Source of the DNA: a virus
Length of the DNA: 64,000 nt
Reading direction: 5' to 3' (one strand)
UHGV virus genome: UHGV-0293664
Made by a program: the position numbers and the translations under genes. Shown here in pieces: positions 31,904 to 53,782 of the stretch. Under the pieces are notes generated by a model. The model worked only from the letters and a program-made list of their open reading frames with translations. It searched no databases and was not told the origin of the DNA. Numbering within the stretch: position 1 is the stretch's first letter; every line of letters begins with the position of its first letter.

Positions 31904-32458
31904 ATGAAATACTTTGTAACAAGCGACACACACTTTCTCCACCAGCGGGTCATGGAGTTCGACTCATGTCAAAAACACAGATCTCAGTATGATCACAATC
32001 TTGACAGTATGAATGCGGGAATCATCACCAAGTGGAACTCTGTTGTGTCACCTGCAGACACTGTGTTCCACTTGGGAGATATTGCGTGCACTAATGATAA
32101 GAATATCAACAACTTACTTCCAGATATTCTAAATATGTTGAACGGACATATTATTCTTGTTCGTGGCAACCATGACACAAGGACGACTGTCAGAATTATG
32201 AAAGAGTTCGGTCATGAGGTTGTAGATTATTACGAGCTTCGCCACAACAAGAATTTGATCTGTATGAGCCATTACCAGTTTGCAAAGTGGAACAGAAAGC
32301 CTCACGGATCAGTCCAACTGTTCGGTCATGCTCACGGAACCACACAGCAGTTGTTTGGCAGGCAGTTTGATGTCGGTTGGGATGTGTGGGGGAGACTCTT
32401 ACCATTAGAAGAGGCATACCGTATTGCAATGAGTCTTGCTATTGACAGCGGGGAGTAA
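31904..32458 (+). CDS. calcineurin-like metallophosphoesterase
   Basis: SDTHF, HLGDIACTND, VRGNHD binuclear-metal motifs; start placed at ATG 31904. Confidence 0.6.
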   Translation: MKYFVTSDTHFLHQRVMEFDSCQKHRSQYDHNLDSMNAGIITKWNSVVSPADTVFHLGDIACTNDKNINNLLPDILNMLNGHIILVRGNHDTRTTVRIMKEFGHEVVDYYELRHNKNLICMSHYQFAKWNRKPHGSVQLFGHAHGTTQQLFGRQFDVGWDVWGRLLPLEEAYRIAMSLAIDSGE

Positions 32459-32505
32459 TCCCTGCTATTTTAAAGAAAATTGCCACACAAGGAGAATCAG
32501 GAGAT

Positions 32506-32856
32506 ATGAAAGATGGGGATAAGCTGCTATATCTTAAAGTCCCCCTTGAAATACTATCTATGTCAAAAGTTTTGAATGACACAACTGGGGAGGTTGTTGT
32601 TCTTGACTTATATGACAAGATCGTATACTGCTACCTGCACAACTGGTATAAGCTTGGAGGAAATTCACGCTTCACACCCAGCACAAGGAAAATTGCAGCA
32701 GATGTAGGGATAAAGAAAACAAAAGCAGCAGCGTGCGTTAAAACTTTAGAATGTGCAGGAGTGGTTGAAATATCCACACAAGGGAGAGGTAAAAGATGCA
32801 CATTTTCCAAAGTTTTGCCACCAGAAGAGGTTATTCGAATGTCAACAACTGATTAG
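32506..32856 (+). CDS. putative HTH DNA-binding protein
   Basis: STRKIAADVGIKKTKAAACVKTLECAGVV helix-turn-helix-like segment; immediately upstream of the iteron array. Confidence 0.4.
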   Translation: MKDGDKLLYLKVPLEILSMSKVLNDTTGEVVVLDLYDKIVYCYLHNWYKLGGNSRFTPSTRKIAADVGIKKTKAAACVKTLECAGVVEISTQGRGKRCTFSKVLPPEEVIRMSTTD

Positions 32857-32910: not shown

Positions 32911-33015
32911 CATGGAACAGACACTGTTAACTGTCCGTGATACGGACACTACTGTCCGTCACGCGGACACATCTGCCCGTAATACGGACACTAACTGTCC
33001 GTGATACGGACACAT
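32911..33015. repeat. tandem array of about 4 inverted-repeat units (GTCCGT-N4-ACGGAC), iteron-like
   Basis: Units at 32931-32950, 32951-32972, 32973-32993, 32994-33015 preceded by an ACAGACACTGT palindrome. Confidence 0.6.
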
Positions 33016-33140
33016 AAAGAATATAACTAAAATAACTAAATAATAAAAATAAAAAGATCTAGTACTTATGGTACTAAAGTACATATACTTAACTTATGTA
33101 GAATATACTAGATCCTAAGTACCATGTTTTAAAATTATTA
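33016..33140. other. AT-rich tract
   Basis: About 125 nt of very high A+T between the iterons and a GC-rich island. Confidence 0.5.
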
Positions 33141-33144
33141 CTTA

Positions 33145-33430
33145 CTATAGGTAGTGTCGGCCCTTCATTGGCACTCGCCTACGAGGGGCGAGATGCCGGG
33201 CCTCCATGGTGCACACAATAACAGAAGTGCATACATGCAGGTCTGTTAACATGTGTGGGAGCGAAGCGATAGCGCAGGCCAAAGGCCGAGCACTGATGTG
33301 GACCACCGACGAAAGCTTGCCAGCGCCGTAAGGAGTCGGTTGAGAGTCTCCCGCGCGAGCTTGGATGAAGTTTATGTGTGGAAACGGACAAGAAGGCACC
33401 TAAATCGCTCCACAGCTATATAAACTGCAC
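33145..33430. ncRNA. GC-rich non-coding island; candidate structured RNA
   Basis: Local G+C far above the flanks; the only ORFs are two overlapping minus-strand frames with non-protein-like composition; hairpins such as CTCGCC-tacgagg-GGCGAG. Confidence 0.3.
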
Positions 33431-33517
33431 CAAGTAGGGCAATCACATCAGTTTGATAGAAAAGCTCGTTACAAAGCGATACAGTGAGTTTTTCTATAAC
33501 TTGAAGAGGAGGCTGCT

Positions 33518-34096
33518 ATGAGTTCACGCAAAGATTCCCGTGAAAAGATTGCAAAACGTTATCAGAATGAAGAACAGATGGAGAAAACTTTCAAGTGGAA
33601 GCCAGGTTTCCAGCGTAATCATTCTAACGCTCGTGATCGTAAGCATCCGGATAAGTGGTTAACACCGCCAAATGATGGCATGCAGGCTGGTGATGAGAAG
33701 GAGCTGTCACCTGGAAAAGATGGCAACTACATTCGCACTAAGGAAGCAGGTCCAAAGGATGACAGTTATCTTGTAGATAAGGTTCTTGACGGTATTGATG
33801 TAGATGTTGACACTGCACGAAACCTTTTTCTTGGTTGGTATCGCACAGGGTTTTTCGACATCAAGGCTATTCGTCGTGTTTGTGATATTAAAAAGTCTGC
33901 CTATGATGATGACTCCCTACATCGCACTCTGAGACAATACTCGGAGAGATACGGTCATCCAGTTATCACTCTTGACGATATTAACGAAGTGATGTATCAT
34001 GCAGAGGTTGTTGCAGGTAGATTCGGTGATGCATACCTGGACATCCTTTCTGCAAAGGATGAGGTAATGTTGAATAAGATTTACTATGAACGCTGA
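33518..34096 (+). CDS. hypothetical protein (192 aa)
   Basis: ORF with SD GAGGAGG upstream. Confidence 0.45.
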   Translation: MSSRKDSREKIAKRYQNEEQMEKTFKWKPGFQRNHSNARDRKHPDKWLTPPNDGMQAGDEKELSPGKDGNYIRTKEAGPKDDSYLVDKVLDGIDVDVDTARNLFLGWYRTGFFDIKAIRRVCDIKKSAYDDDSLHRTLRQYSERYGHPVITLDDINEVMYHAEVVAGRFGDAYLDILSAKDEVMLNKIYYER

Positions 34097-34639: not shown

Positions 34640-34904
34640 TATCCAATTTAAAGATGAATTTGATGGCTTTATCTCCGGATGCTTTGAAACAGGGTTCGGA
34701 GAAGACTGAGTTCCCCTTAGAGGGCTTGATAGTGCACCACACTCAAAATGGTAGGGGCAGCCAGCACATGACGATGTGACCCCAGCCAACCTGTAATAAG
34801 GTCGAGCCCAAGTGCGGTAATGGGTATAGCTGGTAACCCACTTGTTGGGTCTTGTTGGTCCAGGACGCTGGGCAAGTCGCAGGGAACACCACCCTGCGGC
34901 GAAC
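34640..34904. ncRNA. non-coding GC-rich stretch; possible structured RNA or leader
   Basis: Only short overlapping minus-strand ORFs; hairpins GGGTATAGCTGGTAACCC and CAGGGaacaccacCCTG. Confidence 0.25.
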
Positions 34905-34933
34905 TTGACAATCAGTATTTGCTATGATAAAAT
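34905..34933 (+). promoter_or_regulatory. sigma70-like promoter
   Basis: TTGACA (34905-34910), 17-nt spacer, TAAAAT (34928-34933). Confidence 0.5.
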
Positions 34934-34961
34934 CCACCTATCACGTGATAATGGAGGAAAC

Positions 34962-35396: not shown

Positions 35397-35471
35397 GCCC
35401 TGTTAGCTTAGTGGATAAAGCAGCGGCCTTCTAAGCCGTTGACACTGGTTCGAGTCCAGTACGGGGTGCCA
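35397..35471 (+). tRNA. tRNA-Arg (anticodon UCU)
   Basis: Hand-folded cloverleaf: acceptor GCCCTGT/ACGGGGT (two G-U), D-stem GCTT/AAGC, anticodon loop CTTCTAA, T-arm ACTGG-TTCGAGT-CCAGT, CCA encoded. Confidence 0.65.
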
Positions 35472-35601
35472 AGTTCTTTTTAATGTAGCTTACTTTAGCA
35501 GAGTAAATCTTCGGCAAGTGGCGGTAACCACTTTACCGATACCTCATAGTTAGTGGTGAGAACACTAGCTATTTTAAAAAGAATTTAAATATTAGTATTT
35601 A

Positions 35602-35689
35602 GGTGAGTTAATTCCGTAGGGGTAGCGGGGCAGACTGTAAATCTGTTATCATTGCGATTCGGGTGGTTCGACTCCATCACTCACCACCA
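35602..35689 (+). tRNA. tRNA-Tyr (anticodon GUA), long variable arm
   Basis: Acceptor GGTGAGT/ACTCACC, anticodon arm GCAGA-CTGTAAA-TCTGT, long variable arm, T-loop TTCGACT, CCA encoded. Confidence 0.65.
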
Positions 35690-35803
35690 AATTTATATTT
35701 TTAAATGCATAAATCATACAGATAATGGCATTGATATTTATCGTCGTTTATACTAGTCACTAACTGCTCGAAAATCAGTGTCATTATCAGTATTGTTTAT
35801 AAA

Positions 35804-35894
35804 AGAGGGTAGGGAGCAATGGTGCTCAAGCGGTCTTGAAAACCGTCCCGTTGAGGATGACTCGATGATGGTTCGATTCCATTATCCTCTGCCA
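35804..35894 (+). tRNA. tRNA-Ser (anticodon UGA), class II
   Basis: Acceptor AGAGGGT/ATCCTCT, anticodon loop CTTGAAA, long variable arm, T-loop TTCGATT, CCA encoded. Confidence 0.6.
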
Positions 35895-35992
35895 TATTGT
35901 TGACCTTGTAATTAAGCGAAAGCCGGAAGCAGAACCGGATTATCAAATGTTACAGTCGTCATCGCCGACTAGCAACATGGTCAACATACTGA

Positions 35993-36089
35993 GCTAGGTA
36001 AGCCCTTTGGCAAGGGCGAGGATTTTTAATCCTGAAAATAGACGAGGTAGTCGTTGAATACATAGGTGGTTCGATTCCATCACCTAGCA
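35993..36089 (+). tRNA. atypical tRNA-like gene (97 nt; anticodon uncertain, possibly UUU)
   Basis: Perfect 7-bp acceptor GCTAGGT/ACCTAGC, D-stem GCCC/GGGC, T-arm GGTGG-TTCGATT-CCATC, but only a 4-bp anticodon stem AGGA/TCCT (loop TTTTTAA), a 30-nt extra region and no full CCA. Confidence 0.45.
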
Positions 36090-36096
36090 CCTTTTT

Positions 36097-36172
36097 GCTG
36101 ATGTAGCACAATTGGTAGTGCAATTGATTTGTAATCAATAGGTTGCAGGTTCGAGTCCTGCTATCAGCACCA
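36097..36172 (+). tRNA. tRNA-Thr (anticodon UGU)
   Basis: Acceptor GCTGATG/TATCAGC, D-stem GCAC/GTGC, anticodon arm ATTGA-TTTGTAA-TCAAT, T-arm GCAGG-TTCGAGT-CCTGC, CCA. Confidence 0.7.
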
Positions 36173-36173
36173 T

Positions 36174-36248
36174 GGCCCTGTAGCTGGAAGGTTCAAGCAA
36201 GCGACTCATAATCGCCAGACGGTGGTTCAATTCCACCCAGGGCCACCA
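36174..36248 (+). tRNA. tRNA-Met (anticodon CAU; initiator, elongator or Ile2 not distinguishable)
   Basis: Acceptor GGCCCTG/CAGGGCC, anticodon loop CTCATAA, T-arm GGTGG-TTCAATT-CCACC, CCA. Confidence 0.65.
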
Positions 36249-36259
36249 AATAATAAATA

Positions 36260-36336
36260 CTCCGCGTAGCTCAGCTTGGTAGAGCGCCTGATTTGGGATC
36301 AGGAGGTCGAGTGTTCGAATCACTCCGTGGAGACCA
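36260..36336 (+). tRNA. tRNA-Pro (anticodon UGG)
   Basis: Acceptor CTCCGCG/CGTGGAG, D-arm GCTC-AGCTTGGTA-GAGC, anticodon arm CCTGA-TTTGGGA-TCAGG, T-arm GAGTG-TTCGAAT-CACTC, CCA. Confidence 0.7.
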
Positions 36337-44540: not shown

Positions 44541-45389
44541 GTGAAGAGAGCTGTATATCCAGTCGAGTATGATCCTCTATTAAGAGTTTTCAACAATCAG
44601 TTAAGTTTTTATCAATTTTTAGCACAATATAACCCAGAAATCAATGTTGGTTTATCAGCCCTGCTGCCACCAACAGAATTCGTTATCGGCAGTGTTCACT
44701 ATCCGTGCAGAACGATTGTAGACTTCTTCGAGAAGATTGCAAAACATACAGGACTGCCAATTGATCCTGGTATTTCAACTATCCGTATGGGTGTTATTCT
44801 TCTGTTCTTCACAGAGAACCTTGATGAAAGCACTTTAACACTGCAAAGCGGGGATGTCAATATCACACTCACCCCGTCAGTGTTTAAAGAGGTAGATGCT
44901 GCTTTCCAAGTTTCCGTGGCAGAGGGCCATCTATGGGACCCTGTAGGGATGCCTAAAAAAGTGACCATAAACGATGAGCAATGCAATATTGTTTATGAAG
45001 AAGATACCCAAACCTTCACCATTGAGTGGCCTAAGAAACGTTCTCAGGTTGTAAATCTTGGACTGGTCTCTACGATAGCTCCACCGCCTGAACCAGAGCC
45101 GGAGCCGCCTGTAGGTCCTACTGAACCTGGTGGTGGTGGTGAAGAATCTCAAGGTCCGACTGTACCTGAGGAAGGCACTGAGCAGGATCCTGAACAGGCA
45201 CAAGAATCAAGATCTTCTCGCAGTGATGTTGATGCCATACTACAGCAGGCCGCAGCTCTTAACAACGAAGATGACAAAAGTGGTTCAAAAGATGCACTTC
45301 AAGCCTTCGCTAAAGAGTACGGTGTTACCTTAAGTAAGGCAAAAACTTTCCAAAATATGATGAAAGATTTTGAGGCTGCACTGGCATAA
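44541..45389 (+). CDS. hypothetical structural protein with Pro/Glu-rich linker
   Basis: GTG start after AGGAG; low-complexity PPPEPEPEPPVGPTEPGGGGEE segment. Confidence 0.4.
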   Translation: MKRAVYPVEYDPLLRVFNNQLSFYQFLAQYNPEINVGLSALLPPTEFVIGSVHYPCRTIVDFFEKIAKHTGLPIDPGISTIRMGVILLFFTENLDESTLTLQSGDVNITLTPSVFKEVDAAFQVSVAEGHLWDPVGMPKKVTINDEQCNIVYEEDTQTFTIEWPKKRSQVVNLGLVSTIAPPPEPEPEPPVGPTEPGGGGEESQGPTVPEEGTEQDPEQAQESRSSRSDVDAILQQAAALNNEDDKSGSKDALQAFAKEYGVTLSKAKTFQNMMKDFEAALA

Positions 45390-46122: not shown

Positions 46123-46587
46123 ATGCTAAAGGTTAAATGTCAAACAAGGTTCAACTTAAAGCGTTTAGATCGCTTTTATAAAGACCTTGTGAAACTTGAA
46201 AGCAAAACAATAACCTACGGCTTTTATGACGAACCTCACCCGTCAGGCTTAAATATGGCAACATTGGCAGCTATTCACAACTTCGGTTGGAACGGGCTGC
46301 CTGTTCGCAATTTCATGGAGACGGCCTTTGCATTTCACAGCACGCAACTGCAAACCTTGACAGAAAAATTGTTGAGGGCTATGGCTAGAGGATCAAGTGC
46401 AGAGGCCGTTCTTAGGCAGATGGGGGACACAGGGGCTAAAGCTATCCAGTTTGTTATTGAGGCTGGTCAGTTTAGTAACCCTACTGTTAGTGAGCAGTGG
46501 GCACAAGAGAAGGGCTTCAACGAGGCTATGCGGCATTACGATGTGCTGCTGGAATCTGCAACCTTTAAAATTGGACAGCAAAAATAA
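46123..46587 (+). CDS. hypothetical head-tail connector-region protein
   Basis: ORF (start at ATG 46123 after GAGGA). Confidence 0.4.
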   Translation: MLKVKCQTRFNLKRLDRFYKDLVKLESKTITYGFYDEPHPSGLNMATLAAIHNFGWNGLPVRNFMETAFAFHSTQLQTLTEKLLRAMARGSSAEAVLRQMGDTGAKAIQFVIEAGQFSNPTVSEQWAQEKGFNEAMRHYDVLLESATFKIGQQK

Positions 46588-52897: not shown

Positions 52898-53782
52898 ATG
52901 CAAAGTAATATAGTTGATGAAAAAGACCTGTACAAGCCTCGAGAGGTTAAATCTCCAAAGGCTGAAAAGGCAGAGCAGCAAACCGAAAGCGATGTAAAGT
53001 ACACTATGTTTGTCAGCGGTCTTAACTATGGCGGTCGCAACATAGAGATGAAGGGTAAAAACTTTACTAACGATCTTGCCATTATCTTCGATCAGGTTGA
53101 GAACTACTCTTTCAAACATTCTGTTGATAAGACGGGGTTTGCGGTGGAAGATAAATCTACCCTGTCAGACCACGCTGTAATTAAAGATGGTGTATTTTCT
53201 TTTACTGGTAGGGTAAATACATCTCCACATATAATCTATGAGCAAAACTACATCGATAGGAATACTGACTCTAAAAACCCTGCAGCATCTATGCGACCAA
53301 GTGCTGCACTGGAGGCTTTGACTGAGATCATTAATAAGCGACAGTTGGTTTCTTTGGTTACCGAGGAGAGACTTCTTGAGAACTACATCATAACCAGTCT
53401 TTCTGCCAGCAAGTCTGTTGGTGAAGGTGCTGCAATGGTTTTTGATGTAGAACTTACGGAGTTCCGCACATTCTACTTGAACAAGGTTGTTAATGCAACT
53501 GTATACAGCAATCCCAAGAAAGTAGGCAAGACTCAACAAAAAGGTGCTGTCAACGATTGTAAGAATGGCAGTAACGTAGGTAACAAGAGAGACACAGGGG
53601 CATTTGCAGACACTGCATCCACAAATGCTGCAGAGGAGTGGCAGCCATATAAATCTATGATGTGGACAGATGAAAACGGTGTTACCCAATCGGCTGCGGA
53701 TTGGTATTATCAGGAATATGGAAGACCTTCTACCATAGTCCCATCTGAGCAGGGAAACTACGACAAAGTTAACGGGAAATAA
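52898..53782 (+). CDS. hypothetical tail/baseplate protein
   Basis: ORF after tape measure; start at ATG 52898 after GGAGAGG. Confidence 0.4.
   Translation: MQSNIVDEKDLYKPREVKSPKAEKAEQQTESDVKYTMFVSGLNYGGRNIEMKGKNFTNDLAIIFDQVENYSFKHSVDKTGFAVEDKSTLSDHAVIKDGVFSFTGRVNTSPHIIYEQNYIDRNTDSKNPAASMRPSAALEALTEIINKRQLVSLVTEERLLENYIITSLSASKSVGEGAAMVFDVELTEFRTFYLNKVVNATVYSNPKKVGKTQQKGAVNDCKNGSNVGNKRDTGAFADTASTNAAEEWQPYKSMMWTDENGVTQSAADWYYQEYGRPSTIVPSEQGNYDKVNGK

Follow-up and report, generated by a model that had tools for sequence, protein, structure and literature searches.

A window of 64,000 nucleotides (nt) from the virus genome UHGV-0293664 contains, between positions 33145 and 33430, a non-coding island rich in guanine and cytosine (G+C), which an earlier note made from the sequence alone had proposed to be a structured RNA or a recently acquired element. 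The region around the island is 88–97% identical to 119 records in the phage collection, which represent the genus Vequintavirus (rV5-like myoviruses), and the window is a genome of this genus of Escherichia phages. The locus is arranged in the order RNA ligase (− strand), polynucleotide kinase, phosphoesterase, a 116-amino acid (aa) winged-helix protein, a 660-base pair (bp) spacer with the island, a 192-aa protein of unassigned function as the first gene 3′ of the spacer (33518–34096, ATG at 33518), small open reading frames (ORFs) and a tRNA array, with the genes flanking the island on the + strand. All 119 records carry the island, and blastn in distant mode identified nothing among phages beyond these records, with one match locus in each. 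Equally, homologue searches found both flanking proteins restricted to the genus, with a single locus recovered in a search for related loci. In two other genera of the Vequintavirinae, represented by Seunavirus 4MG and a Mydovirus, the neighbourhood of the phosphoesterase homologue is densely filled with genes in a different order and has no comparable spacer. The winged helix-turn-helix (wHTH) gene, the repeats and the A+T-rich tract described below, the island and the 192-aa gene form a genus-specific, insertion-like block. Among the records, 18 of 119 are named 'Campylobacter phage' (GenBank MG0656xx) and are ~96% identical to E. coli Vequintaviruses at the locus, and the PLSDB 'plasmid' CP057073.1, with 137.6 kb of the length of a Vequintavirus genome, contains the whole island query at 96.9% identity; both are probably issues of labelling or filing.

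The 116-aa protein (32506–32856, + strand) is a relative of the N-terminal DNA-binding domain found in O-like initiators of phage replication, as it matches PHROG 12838 (E 9e-80) and more weakly PHROGs 8102 and 428 (E 7e-6 and 1e-3), all labelled 'replication initiation protein', and, slightly under the cut-off, Pfam HTH_36 and DUF6945; in relatives it is annotated as 'putative transcriptional regulator' or 'replication initiation protein'. Downstream of the gene a repeat search identified four 21–22-bp repeats (32928–33013), each an inverted TGTCCGT-N3-ACGGACA, which in phage naam are annotated as repeat_region and are presumed from their symmetry and position to be binding sites of the wHTH protein. 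They are followed by an A+T-rich tract of 19% G+C (33014–33140), a candidate DNA-unwinding element, and the island follows within 0–15 nt, in agreement with the earlier placement between an iteron/AT-rich element and the next operon. In the most divergent relative, contig L004 from IMG/VR and metagenome data, of which the neighbouring genes show 84–88% nucleotide identity, a differing 143-aa wHTH allele is accompanied by unrelated (T/G)CATCAGAT-type repeats and an A-rich tract still adjoins the island. Allele and repeats thus appear to change together, which reads as a specificity swap beside an unchanged hairpin island.

With 54.9% G+C compared to a mean of 43.3% in the window (standard deviation 3.4% for 280-nt windows), the island is as distinct in composition as had been claimed; the top 280-nt stretch of the 64 kb lies at 33155–33434 (55.4%), and only 0.03% of windows match the island value. 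Two overlapping antisense ORFs of 84 aa (33145–33399) and 70 aa (33179–33391) are present as stated, although the earlier description of these as the only frames is incomplete, since the + strand holds further small ORFs of 31, 41 and 56 aa. Variation was counted among 13 phage versions of the spacer with 109 variable sites. An excess of third-position substitutions was absent from every tested frame of the island, with variable sites distributed 18/27/18 over codon positions 1/2/3 of the 84-aa frame, and this frame is interrupted in phages Gotham and EcoIv14a_Aya (Aya). Since codon periodicity is lacking and two phages carry an interrupted version of the longest antisense ORF, the island is non-coding, as the earlier note had it, and a conserved protein-coding gene does not emerge at this position in the related phages. 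Neither does the island belong to a catalogued RNA family: at the gathering threshold of Rfam 15 the matches in the window are six tRNAs at 35.4–36.3 kb, and at E values up to 10 the best match overlapping the island, rli43, reaches 23 bits against a threshold of 100 and lies mostly over the A+T-rich tract.

Variation along the spacer is very uneven. Positions 33160–33199 and 33300–33359 are almost invariant, 33200–33260 and 33360–33440 are variable, and 33440–33499 is again nearly invariant; the conserved part of the island spans 33154–33357. Identity to L004 amounts to 94% in the region of a first hairpin, H1, and 90% in a conserved core, as compared to 69% in the variable parts and 48% in the spacer upstream of the island; conservation of these two units equals or exceeds that of the neighbouring genes. 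On the + strand, H1 (33159–33202) has the form GGCCC / GGCA-CUCGCC / loop / GGCGAG-A-UGCC / GGGCC with 15 pairs, 100% paired in five distinct sequences, and its variable columns among phages all fall in loops. It is followed by a variable hairpin region, H2 (33206–33252, + strand, 69% identity to L004), with CAGA-AG-UGCA-UACA-UGCA-GG-UCUG at 33222–33245; its outer stem is CAGA/UCUG in the window, CAGC/GCUG in L004 and mismatched in several other phages, and an 18-nt deletion partly removes H2 in Murica and A6-1. The next segment (33253–33295, + strand) consists of GUGUGGGAG at 33253–33261 and the hairpins GC-GAA-GC (33261–33267) and GGCC-AAA-GGCC (33277–33287).

The core (33296–33357, + strand), as derived from an RNAalifold consensus of 16 sequences, comprises AUGUGGACC, a three-way junction and GAGAGUCUCCCGCGCG. 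The junction is closed by the stem ACCGAC (33305–33310) / GUCGGU (33335–33340) and bears the hairpins GCU-UGCC-AGC (33315–33324) and CC-GUAA-GG (33326–33333), flanked by AUGUGGA on the 5′ and GAGUCUCCCGCGC on the 3′ side. In minimum-energy folds of the phage island and of several arrays on plasmids described below, GUGUGGGAG (33253–33261) pairs with CUCCCGCGC (33348–33356); this long-range closing helix, with two U·G pairs and without covariation, is a proposal of the folding model only. With up to three mismatches allowed, the core flank AGAGTCTCCCGCGCG is a single-copy sequence in both the window and the plasmid. A scan of IMG/VR, metagenome and genome contigs with the core sequence added three phage contigs, one of which is identical with L004, as well as two contigs of plasmid-like character, the remaining hits being chance matches in G+C-rich genomes; a gapped pattern made from the core flanks gave chance matches only in IMG/VR. 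As a separate observation, GGGAGACUCU at the end of the phosphoesterase gene (32390–32399) shows full complementarity to AGAGUCUCCC, which lies 950 nt further along the same strand, within the 3′ core flank (33343–33352); ~0.1 such matches are expected by chance in the window.

Permissive blastn searches against complete E. coli genomes and PLSDB revealed partial matches to the island of 84–85% identity in unannotated plasmid DNA. The matching plasmids are circular, non-mobilisable and of ~13 kb (NZ_CP020521, NZ_CP035869, NZ_CP178698, CP148565 and NZ_CP043822, the latter assembled as a 39.6-kb trimer); CP134895 was found as a further family member via plasmid-to-plasmid similarity, and two further examples of this plasmid type are metagenome contigs (13.9 and 15.5 kb). 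Encoded are a major head protein, a 705-aa tape measure protein (PHROG 5255, E 1e-160), an 85-aa helix-turn-helix (HTH) protein (HTH_7), a 267-aa tail/baseplate protein (annotated 'phage baseplate protein'), a tail-completion protein and a 288–304-aa HTH protein that matches many 'replication initiation O-like' and 'DnaD-like loader' PHROGs with E values down to 3e-12; a terminase, portal, sheath or tube gene is not among the annotations. By tblastx, the 267-aa protein is ~55% identical to the product of 53048–53584 of the window and the tail-completion protein ~48% to that of 46210–46551. BLASTP gave no significant match between the phage wHTH protein and the plasmid replication protein; some PHROG families are matched by both. 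None of the ~13-kb records is contained in the phage collection, and nothing was found in the literature on satellites of rV5. As judged from gene content, these plasmids may be satellites that depend on an rV5-like helper.

Within the 64-kb window only the island gives significant matches to non-coding plasmid DNA. The similarity of the island to the leader of the plasmid capsid operon is not significant, and that of the island tail to plasmid DNA is not above shuffled controls; a 35-nt plasmid match at 45205–45239, inside a gene on the other strand, was taken as chance. The island had alternatively been considered an acquired element, and this suggestion gains support from the confinement of the module to Vequintavirus and from the part of the island that is common to the plasmids. 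On the plasmids the array is preceded by the iterons and followed by the sigma-70 promoters that serve the operon with the initiator gene, and the core is located beside iterons in all eight plasmid-type sequences, with iterons that vary among plasmids and a core that stays constant. The plasmid array is built from hairpin modules, each preceded by (U)GUGUGGG; plasmids differ in their combination of modules A, B, C, D and F, all arrays end in the core, and H1 is present in one variant only (NZ_CP020521). Copies of GTGTGGG are found on both strands of plasmid NZ_CP020521.1 (for example 2264, 2768, 12479, 12529 and 12627), mostly in non-coding DNA and often beside hairpins, and one copy is located in the long leader between a consensus sigma-70 promoter (~2561–2590) and the capsid operon.

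The comparison of phage and plasmid versions demonstrates that the folds are kept. In H1 of NZ_CP020521, GUCA/UGAC stands in place of GGCA/UGCC and CUCUCC/GGAGAG in place of CUCGCC/GGCGAG, so that two pairs differ on both sides, with 15 of 15 pairs intact and all remaining differences in loops. In the core, 11 of 11 pairs are intact in the 16 sequences (176/176 cells paired), while the stem ACCGAC/GUCGGU reads GCUGCC/GGCAGC in the plasmids, with three compensatory pairs, and its outer pair changes from A-U to G·U in L004 and Aya. Of the two hairpins within the junction, GCU-UGCC-AGC is invariant and the loop of CC-GNAA-GG stays of the GNRA type (GUAA or GGAA). The covariation score of the core was reached by 0 of 500 shuffles, and slid controls pair at 12–57%. 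Taken over the stems of H1 and core, phage and plasmid thus differ by five compensatory double changes and zero disruptive ones, and the 26-nt stretch between the stems, plus the flanks, is identical in both. In plasmid CP134895 the flanks AUGUGGA and GAGUCUCCCGCGC are kept with an unrelated 8-bp hairpin between them, so that the flanks plus 'a stable hairpin' represent the invariant part of the core. Comparison of CP134895 with the other plasmids by eye shows four more compensatory changes in accessory modules (GUCAC/GUGAC to GUGCU/AGCAC; UUUAGCU/AGCUAAA to UUAAGCU/AGCUUAA). The local hairpins that had been noticed in the island are therefore real, with covariation as their main support; the folding energy on its own is moderately unusual compared to shuffles (z −2.7 on the + and −2.8 on the − strand). 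For the arrays, fold z-scores range from −2.3 to −7.3, in favour of a structure under selection. The island is a real non-coding hairpin array kept by compensatory mutations, and the core, which phage and plasmids share, probably acts in cis as a so far uncatalogued type of signal.

Several observations address which strand folds. Wobble pairs valid only on the + strand occur in the core stem (A-U to G·U), in a hairpin further downstream at 33456–33497 (G·U, and C-G to U·G) and in the proposed closing helix (two U·G), and the minimum free energy of the + strand is below that of the − strand in 8 of 9 arrays, by 1.6–13 kcal/mol; on both grounds the folded strand is the + strand. The loops of the arrays comprise C(UUCG)G in plasmid modules, GNRA and three C(GAA)G triloops. 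As C(UUCG)G and GNRA loops are typical of RNA and the C(GAA)G triloop is an unusually stable DNA mini-hairpin motif, the loops leave the choice between RNA and DNA undecided. With a promoter-like site at 32442–32471 and no terminator predicted before 34836, read-through transcription of the island is likely in the phage. A promoter-like or terminator-like site was not found between 32471 and 33880, and on the plasmids the promoters of the replication operon come after the array, which is therefore outside that mRNA, with only a weak promoter-like match (9/12) reading towards the array. The discrete RNA envisaged earlier, a bracketed small-RNA gene of ~250 nt, consequently does not agree with the layout of either replicon. 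As to the more general proposal of a structured RNA, the non-coding, folded and compensated nature of the sequence stands, but RNA as the functional molecule is not established by these data, and an unwound + strand of DNA fits them equally well.

The reading we tentatively prefer, with a probability that falls somewhat short of even, is that the island is an origin-proximal signal which acts as unwound, single-stranded + strand DNA, similar to a single-strand initiation (ssi) site for priming or replisome entry. Two features of the locus suggest an origin: the same order of parts, that is initiator sites, A+T-rich tract and hairpin array, recurs in two replicons without common initiator or repeat sequence, and the binding module is swapped in L004 and among plasmid variants while H1 and core stay constant. 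From this architecture we infer that the module might be a plasmid-type, lambda-ori-like origin composed of a gene for an O-like initiator domain, four dyad repeats, an unwinding tract and the hairpin array. Melting of the A+T-rich tract would expose H1 and the core, with AUGUGGA, hairpin or three-way junction and GAGUCUCCCGCGC, in single-stranded form on the + strand, and a primase-helicase might start synthesis at the exposed signal; the helicase of rV5 is of the gp4 type, with homologues that include podovirus primase/helicases (PMC3606486). The ~13-kb plasmids would use the core to join the origin opened by their own initiator to the phage replication machinery.

Elements of this general kind are known, whether the island turns out to be a hairpin signal that acts in single-stranded form at an origin or a structured RNA that acts in cis. 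ssi sites of the G4 type or for primosome assembly are found near the origins of R1, F and ColE1. The oriV of RSF1010 carries the hairpin signals ssiA and ssiB, which are start sites of the plasmid's own primase (PMC8567376). These signals and the island have in common that they are strand-specific non-coding hairpin signals beside initiator repeats and an A+T-rich tract, a location found in the phage and in all eight plasmid-type sequences at what would be the origin. ssi signals act only once unwound and the unit recognised is a single-stranded flank plus hairpin, as would equally apply to the island. In contrast, ssiA and ssiB form an inverted pair with a unit of ~40 nt, while the island is one copy of ~200 nt with several hairpins and a three-way junction, of which the accessory hairpins vary and shuffle; the likeness is one of architecture. 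The origin of phage lambda, where each binding site has internal dyad symmetry, offers a second parallel. It consists of initiator-binding iterons and an AT-rich tract (PMC7466680), and would share with the phage module an O-like winged-helix initiator domain, four spaced binding sites and the adjacent AT-rich tract; however, the sites in the phage module are downstream of the initiator gene and not inside it, the protein of 116–143 aa is without C-terminal recruiting domain, and a 200-nt hairpin array follows the AT tract.

A number of points weigh against an origin-proximal single-strand signal. The covariation is mostly between phage and plasmid, two lineages, and therefore reflects few independent events. 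Origin status is suggested by architecture and homology, and the turning points of GC skew in rV5 coincide with changes in transcription direction, so that they locate no origin (PMC3606486). The 116-aa protein is a DNA-binding domain only, and dyad-symmetric sites would also suit a repressor. Furthermore, the + strand is the sense strand of the flanking genes and the island is very probably transcribed in the phage, loops of the C(UUCG)G and GNRA types are well known from RNA, and each replicon has one copy of the signal as opposed to paired ssiA/ssiB. Shuffled, variable accessory hairpins are, to our knowledge, not a property of ssi signals.

The strongest competitor, an explanation nearly as probable, is a structured RNA on the + strand, a leader or intercistronic RNA that acts in cis on the downstream operon with the 192-aa gene, the small ORFs and the tRNA genes. 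Possible roles are that of a factor-binding or antitermination element, of a block to Rho loading on the 660-nt untranslated stretch, or of a processing or stability element, and the plasmids would carry the core to respond to the same phage factor. Besides the compensated stems, the wobbles valid on the + strand only, the conserved GNRA loop, the C(UUCG)G loops and the expected read-through, this explanation is favoured by the co-orientation of the array with the downstream genes in phage and plasmids. The + strand is moreover G-rich and C-poor (GC skew up to +0.16), a composition which in a transcript disfavours Rho loading. A 12-bp hairpin with an 18-nt loop (33456–33497, + strand) follows the poorly conserved spacer at 33358–33440 (+ strand, 46 of the 109 variable sites, 69% identity to L004) and is separated by only a few bases from the ribosome-binding site that precedes the 192-aa gene. 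It is nearly invariant, with only three variable sites in 33460–33499 and ~80 nt around it almost invariant across the genus; it contains a conserved G·U on the + strand and shows C-G to U·G in Aya, and as part of the 5′ untranslated region it may be a translational or stability element of the mRNA. On the other hand, a structured RNA has to contend with the lack of Rfam matches, which extends at E values up to 1 to two plasmid arrays, with the missing sigma-70-like promoter directly upstream and terminator downstream, which do not make a discrete small-RNA gene, and with the position of the plasmid array ahead of the operon promoters. It also leaves unexplained why two replicons that are otherwise unrelated both have the element next to an AT tract and sites for an initiator. 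A transcriptome of Vequintavirus was not found in the literature, nor a report on its origin or a mention of the core sequences.

Known RNA elements resemble the island in part. Antitermination RNAs such as lambda nut boxA/boxB and HK022 put present conserved single-stranded boxes beside a variable hairpin, upstream of an operon and on the sense strand; unlike these, the island shows no boxA/boxB consensus at the core and is not located just after a promoter, and its plasmid copy is upstream of the operon promoters. Primer or origin RNAs, with ColE1 RNA II and the T4 R-loop origins as examples, are structured, G-rich origin transcripts of which the fold matters for initiation; the island differs from them by the absence of a promoter at fixed distance, of an antisense partner and of an identifiable RNase H or processing site.

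Improbable by comparison is that the hairpins are cassettes with little or no function for the phage, similar to repetitive extragenic palindromic (REP) sequences or to promoter early stem-loop (PeSL) modules, which shuffle at GUGUGGG junctions between co-resident plasmids and the phage. The differing module combinations ahead of the core, the occurrence of H1 in one plasmid variant, the abundance of GTGTGGG in the 13.7-kb plasmid NZ_CP020521.1 (12 copies versus 1.1 expected) and the partial deletion of H2 in Murica and A6-1 without loss of the phage are all in line with such shuffling, as are the T4-type intergenic C(UUCG)G hairpins and PeSL modules, stable short hairpins in phage intergenic DNA that are bounded by a repeated short motif and reshuffled among relatives. 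However, PeSLs carry an early promoter and are present in many dispersed copies, as are REP sequences and bacterial interspersed mosaic elements (BIMEs), while the array is a single locus per genome with a core common to the plasmids, and GTGTGGG is not enriched in the phage window (7 copies versus 6.0 expected). Dispensable cassettes would equally not be expected to retain H1 and core in 119 of 119 phage records, to be more conserved in L004 than the adjacent genes, or to keep the inter-stem sequence and flanks identical to the plasmids while the stems covary.

Quite improbable also is a protein-binding region of duplex DNA, be it palindromic operators, a partition or gyrase site, or a site-specific recombination site common to phage and plasmid. 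Inverted repeats would here covary since both half-sites bind the same dimer; mirror changes are what symmetric dimer sites lead one to expect, the identical 26-nt stretch is flanked by inverted repeats, and the trimeric plasmid assembly fits the formation and resolution of multimers. Such a site does not account for the change from A-U to G·U, which keeps pairing but breaks half-site symmetry, nor for the exchange of the central hairpin in CP134895 between kept flanks. H1, with its 15 bp in three segments and a bulge, and the nested three-way junction are unlike operators, and a recombinase is not evident on the plasmids, which have only the 85-aa HTH_7 protein.

Satellites classically share packaging sites with their helpers, as does P4, which shares cos with P2, and the island as the sole significant non-coding match of the window to the plasmids could suggest a pac, cos or terminal repeat copied for the phage terminase. 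This is very unlikely and has been largely refuted. In virions of phage Gotham, packaging begins at a fixed point and the DNA carries direct terminal repeats of 459 bp (PMC7471380). The 137-kb record MT682716 has these repeats annotated at its two termini, and in this record the island, ~95% identical to that of the window by our own estimate from the alignment, is located at ~96.4–97.0 kb, 40 kb from the nearest end; the terminal-repeat region of Gotham is not present in the 64-kb window. Independently of the island, positions 27–50 of the Gotham repeat match 519–542 of NZ_CP020521.1 over 24 nt (92%, with 14 exact nt, AATTCTCAAATATC, and E 0.005 in a small search), in the left part of the 459-bp repeat and in a large non-coding region of all compared plasmid variants, which may be a shared packaging signal or chance. 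Least credible of all is a small gene, either the antisense 84-aa ORF or the 31- and 56-aa + strand ORFs annotated in BASEL records: the 84-aa frame is open in 11 of 13 phages, indels are all multiples of three and some records annotate hypothetical proteins at the island, but most depositors annotate no gene, the substitutions and the two interrupted frames speak against coding, paired stem changes explain the conservation better, and open frames as long as this one are not rare in DNA of 55–60% G+C (~3–4% per frame by our own estimate).

The helper–satellite systems remain instructive with respect to what is shared. P2 and P4 have in common cos and late promoters activated by Ogr/delta, and the situation is similar here in that a short non-coding sequence is near-identical in a phage and in a small element encoding a partial virion; it differs in that the island is neither a packaging site nor a recognisable promoter, and in that the relation would follow from gene content. 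Rather doubtful, yet the most far-reaching extension of the origin-proximal signal, is that the core is the entry or priming signal of the rV5-type replisome, mimicked beside their own iterons by undescribed plasmid-borne satellites. If true, a satellite origin opened by its own initiator would be taken over by the helper replisome during infection, a case of molecular mimicry directed at the origin signal of the phage, in which an arms race would shuffle the surrounding hairpin cassettes. The satellites, of ~13 kb, would then combine an own O-like initiator, a capsid gene and a shortened tape measure with rV5-like baseplate and tail-completion proteins.

What is new is that the array is modular, that a hairpin which can be exchanged is set between two conserved flanks, and that a virulent phage genus and satellite-like plasmids have the element in common. 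Phages of the rV5 type are common in therapy collections, with origins and non-coding elements that are unmapped, and the locus provides a concrete test candidate defined to the base pair for which natural covariation suggests the mutations. Equally, the element links these phages to circular E. coli 'plasmids' that resemble satellites with their own capsid and tail-length genes. If functional, this link would represent a novel route by which a satellite connects to its helper, and would explain a non-coding core that stays constant despite swapped initiators, iterons and neighbouring hairpins.

Two further observations concern the region downstream. A second G+C-rich spacer (34700–34960, up to 55% in 200-nt windows) upstream of a 112-aa gene matches neither Rfam nor the plasmids and has a fold z of only −1.67 (34700–34910); it ends in the near-consensus promoter TTGACA-17-TAAAAT (34905–34933). 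The tRNA array (35397–36336) is called differently by two tools, with an Rfam tRNA at 35602–35686 that is not in ARAGORN and an ARAGORN tRNA-Ser at 35804–35894 that is outside the Rfam gathering list, and it includes a 99-nt tRNA-like gene (35993–36091) with a four-base anticodon call that is labelled tRNA-Lys or 'OTHER' in relatives.

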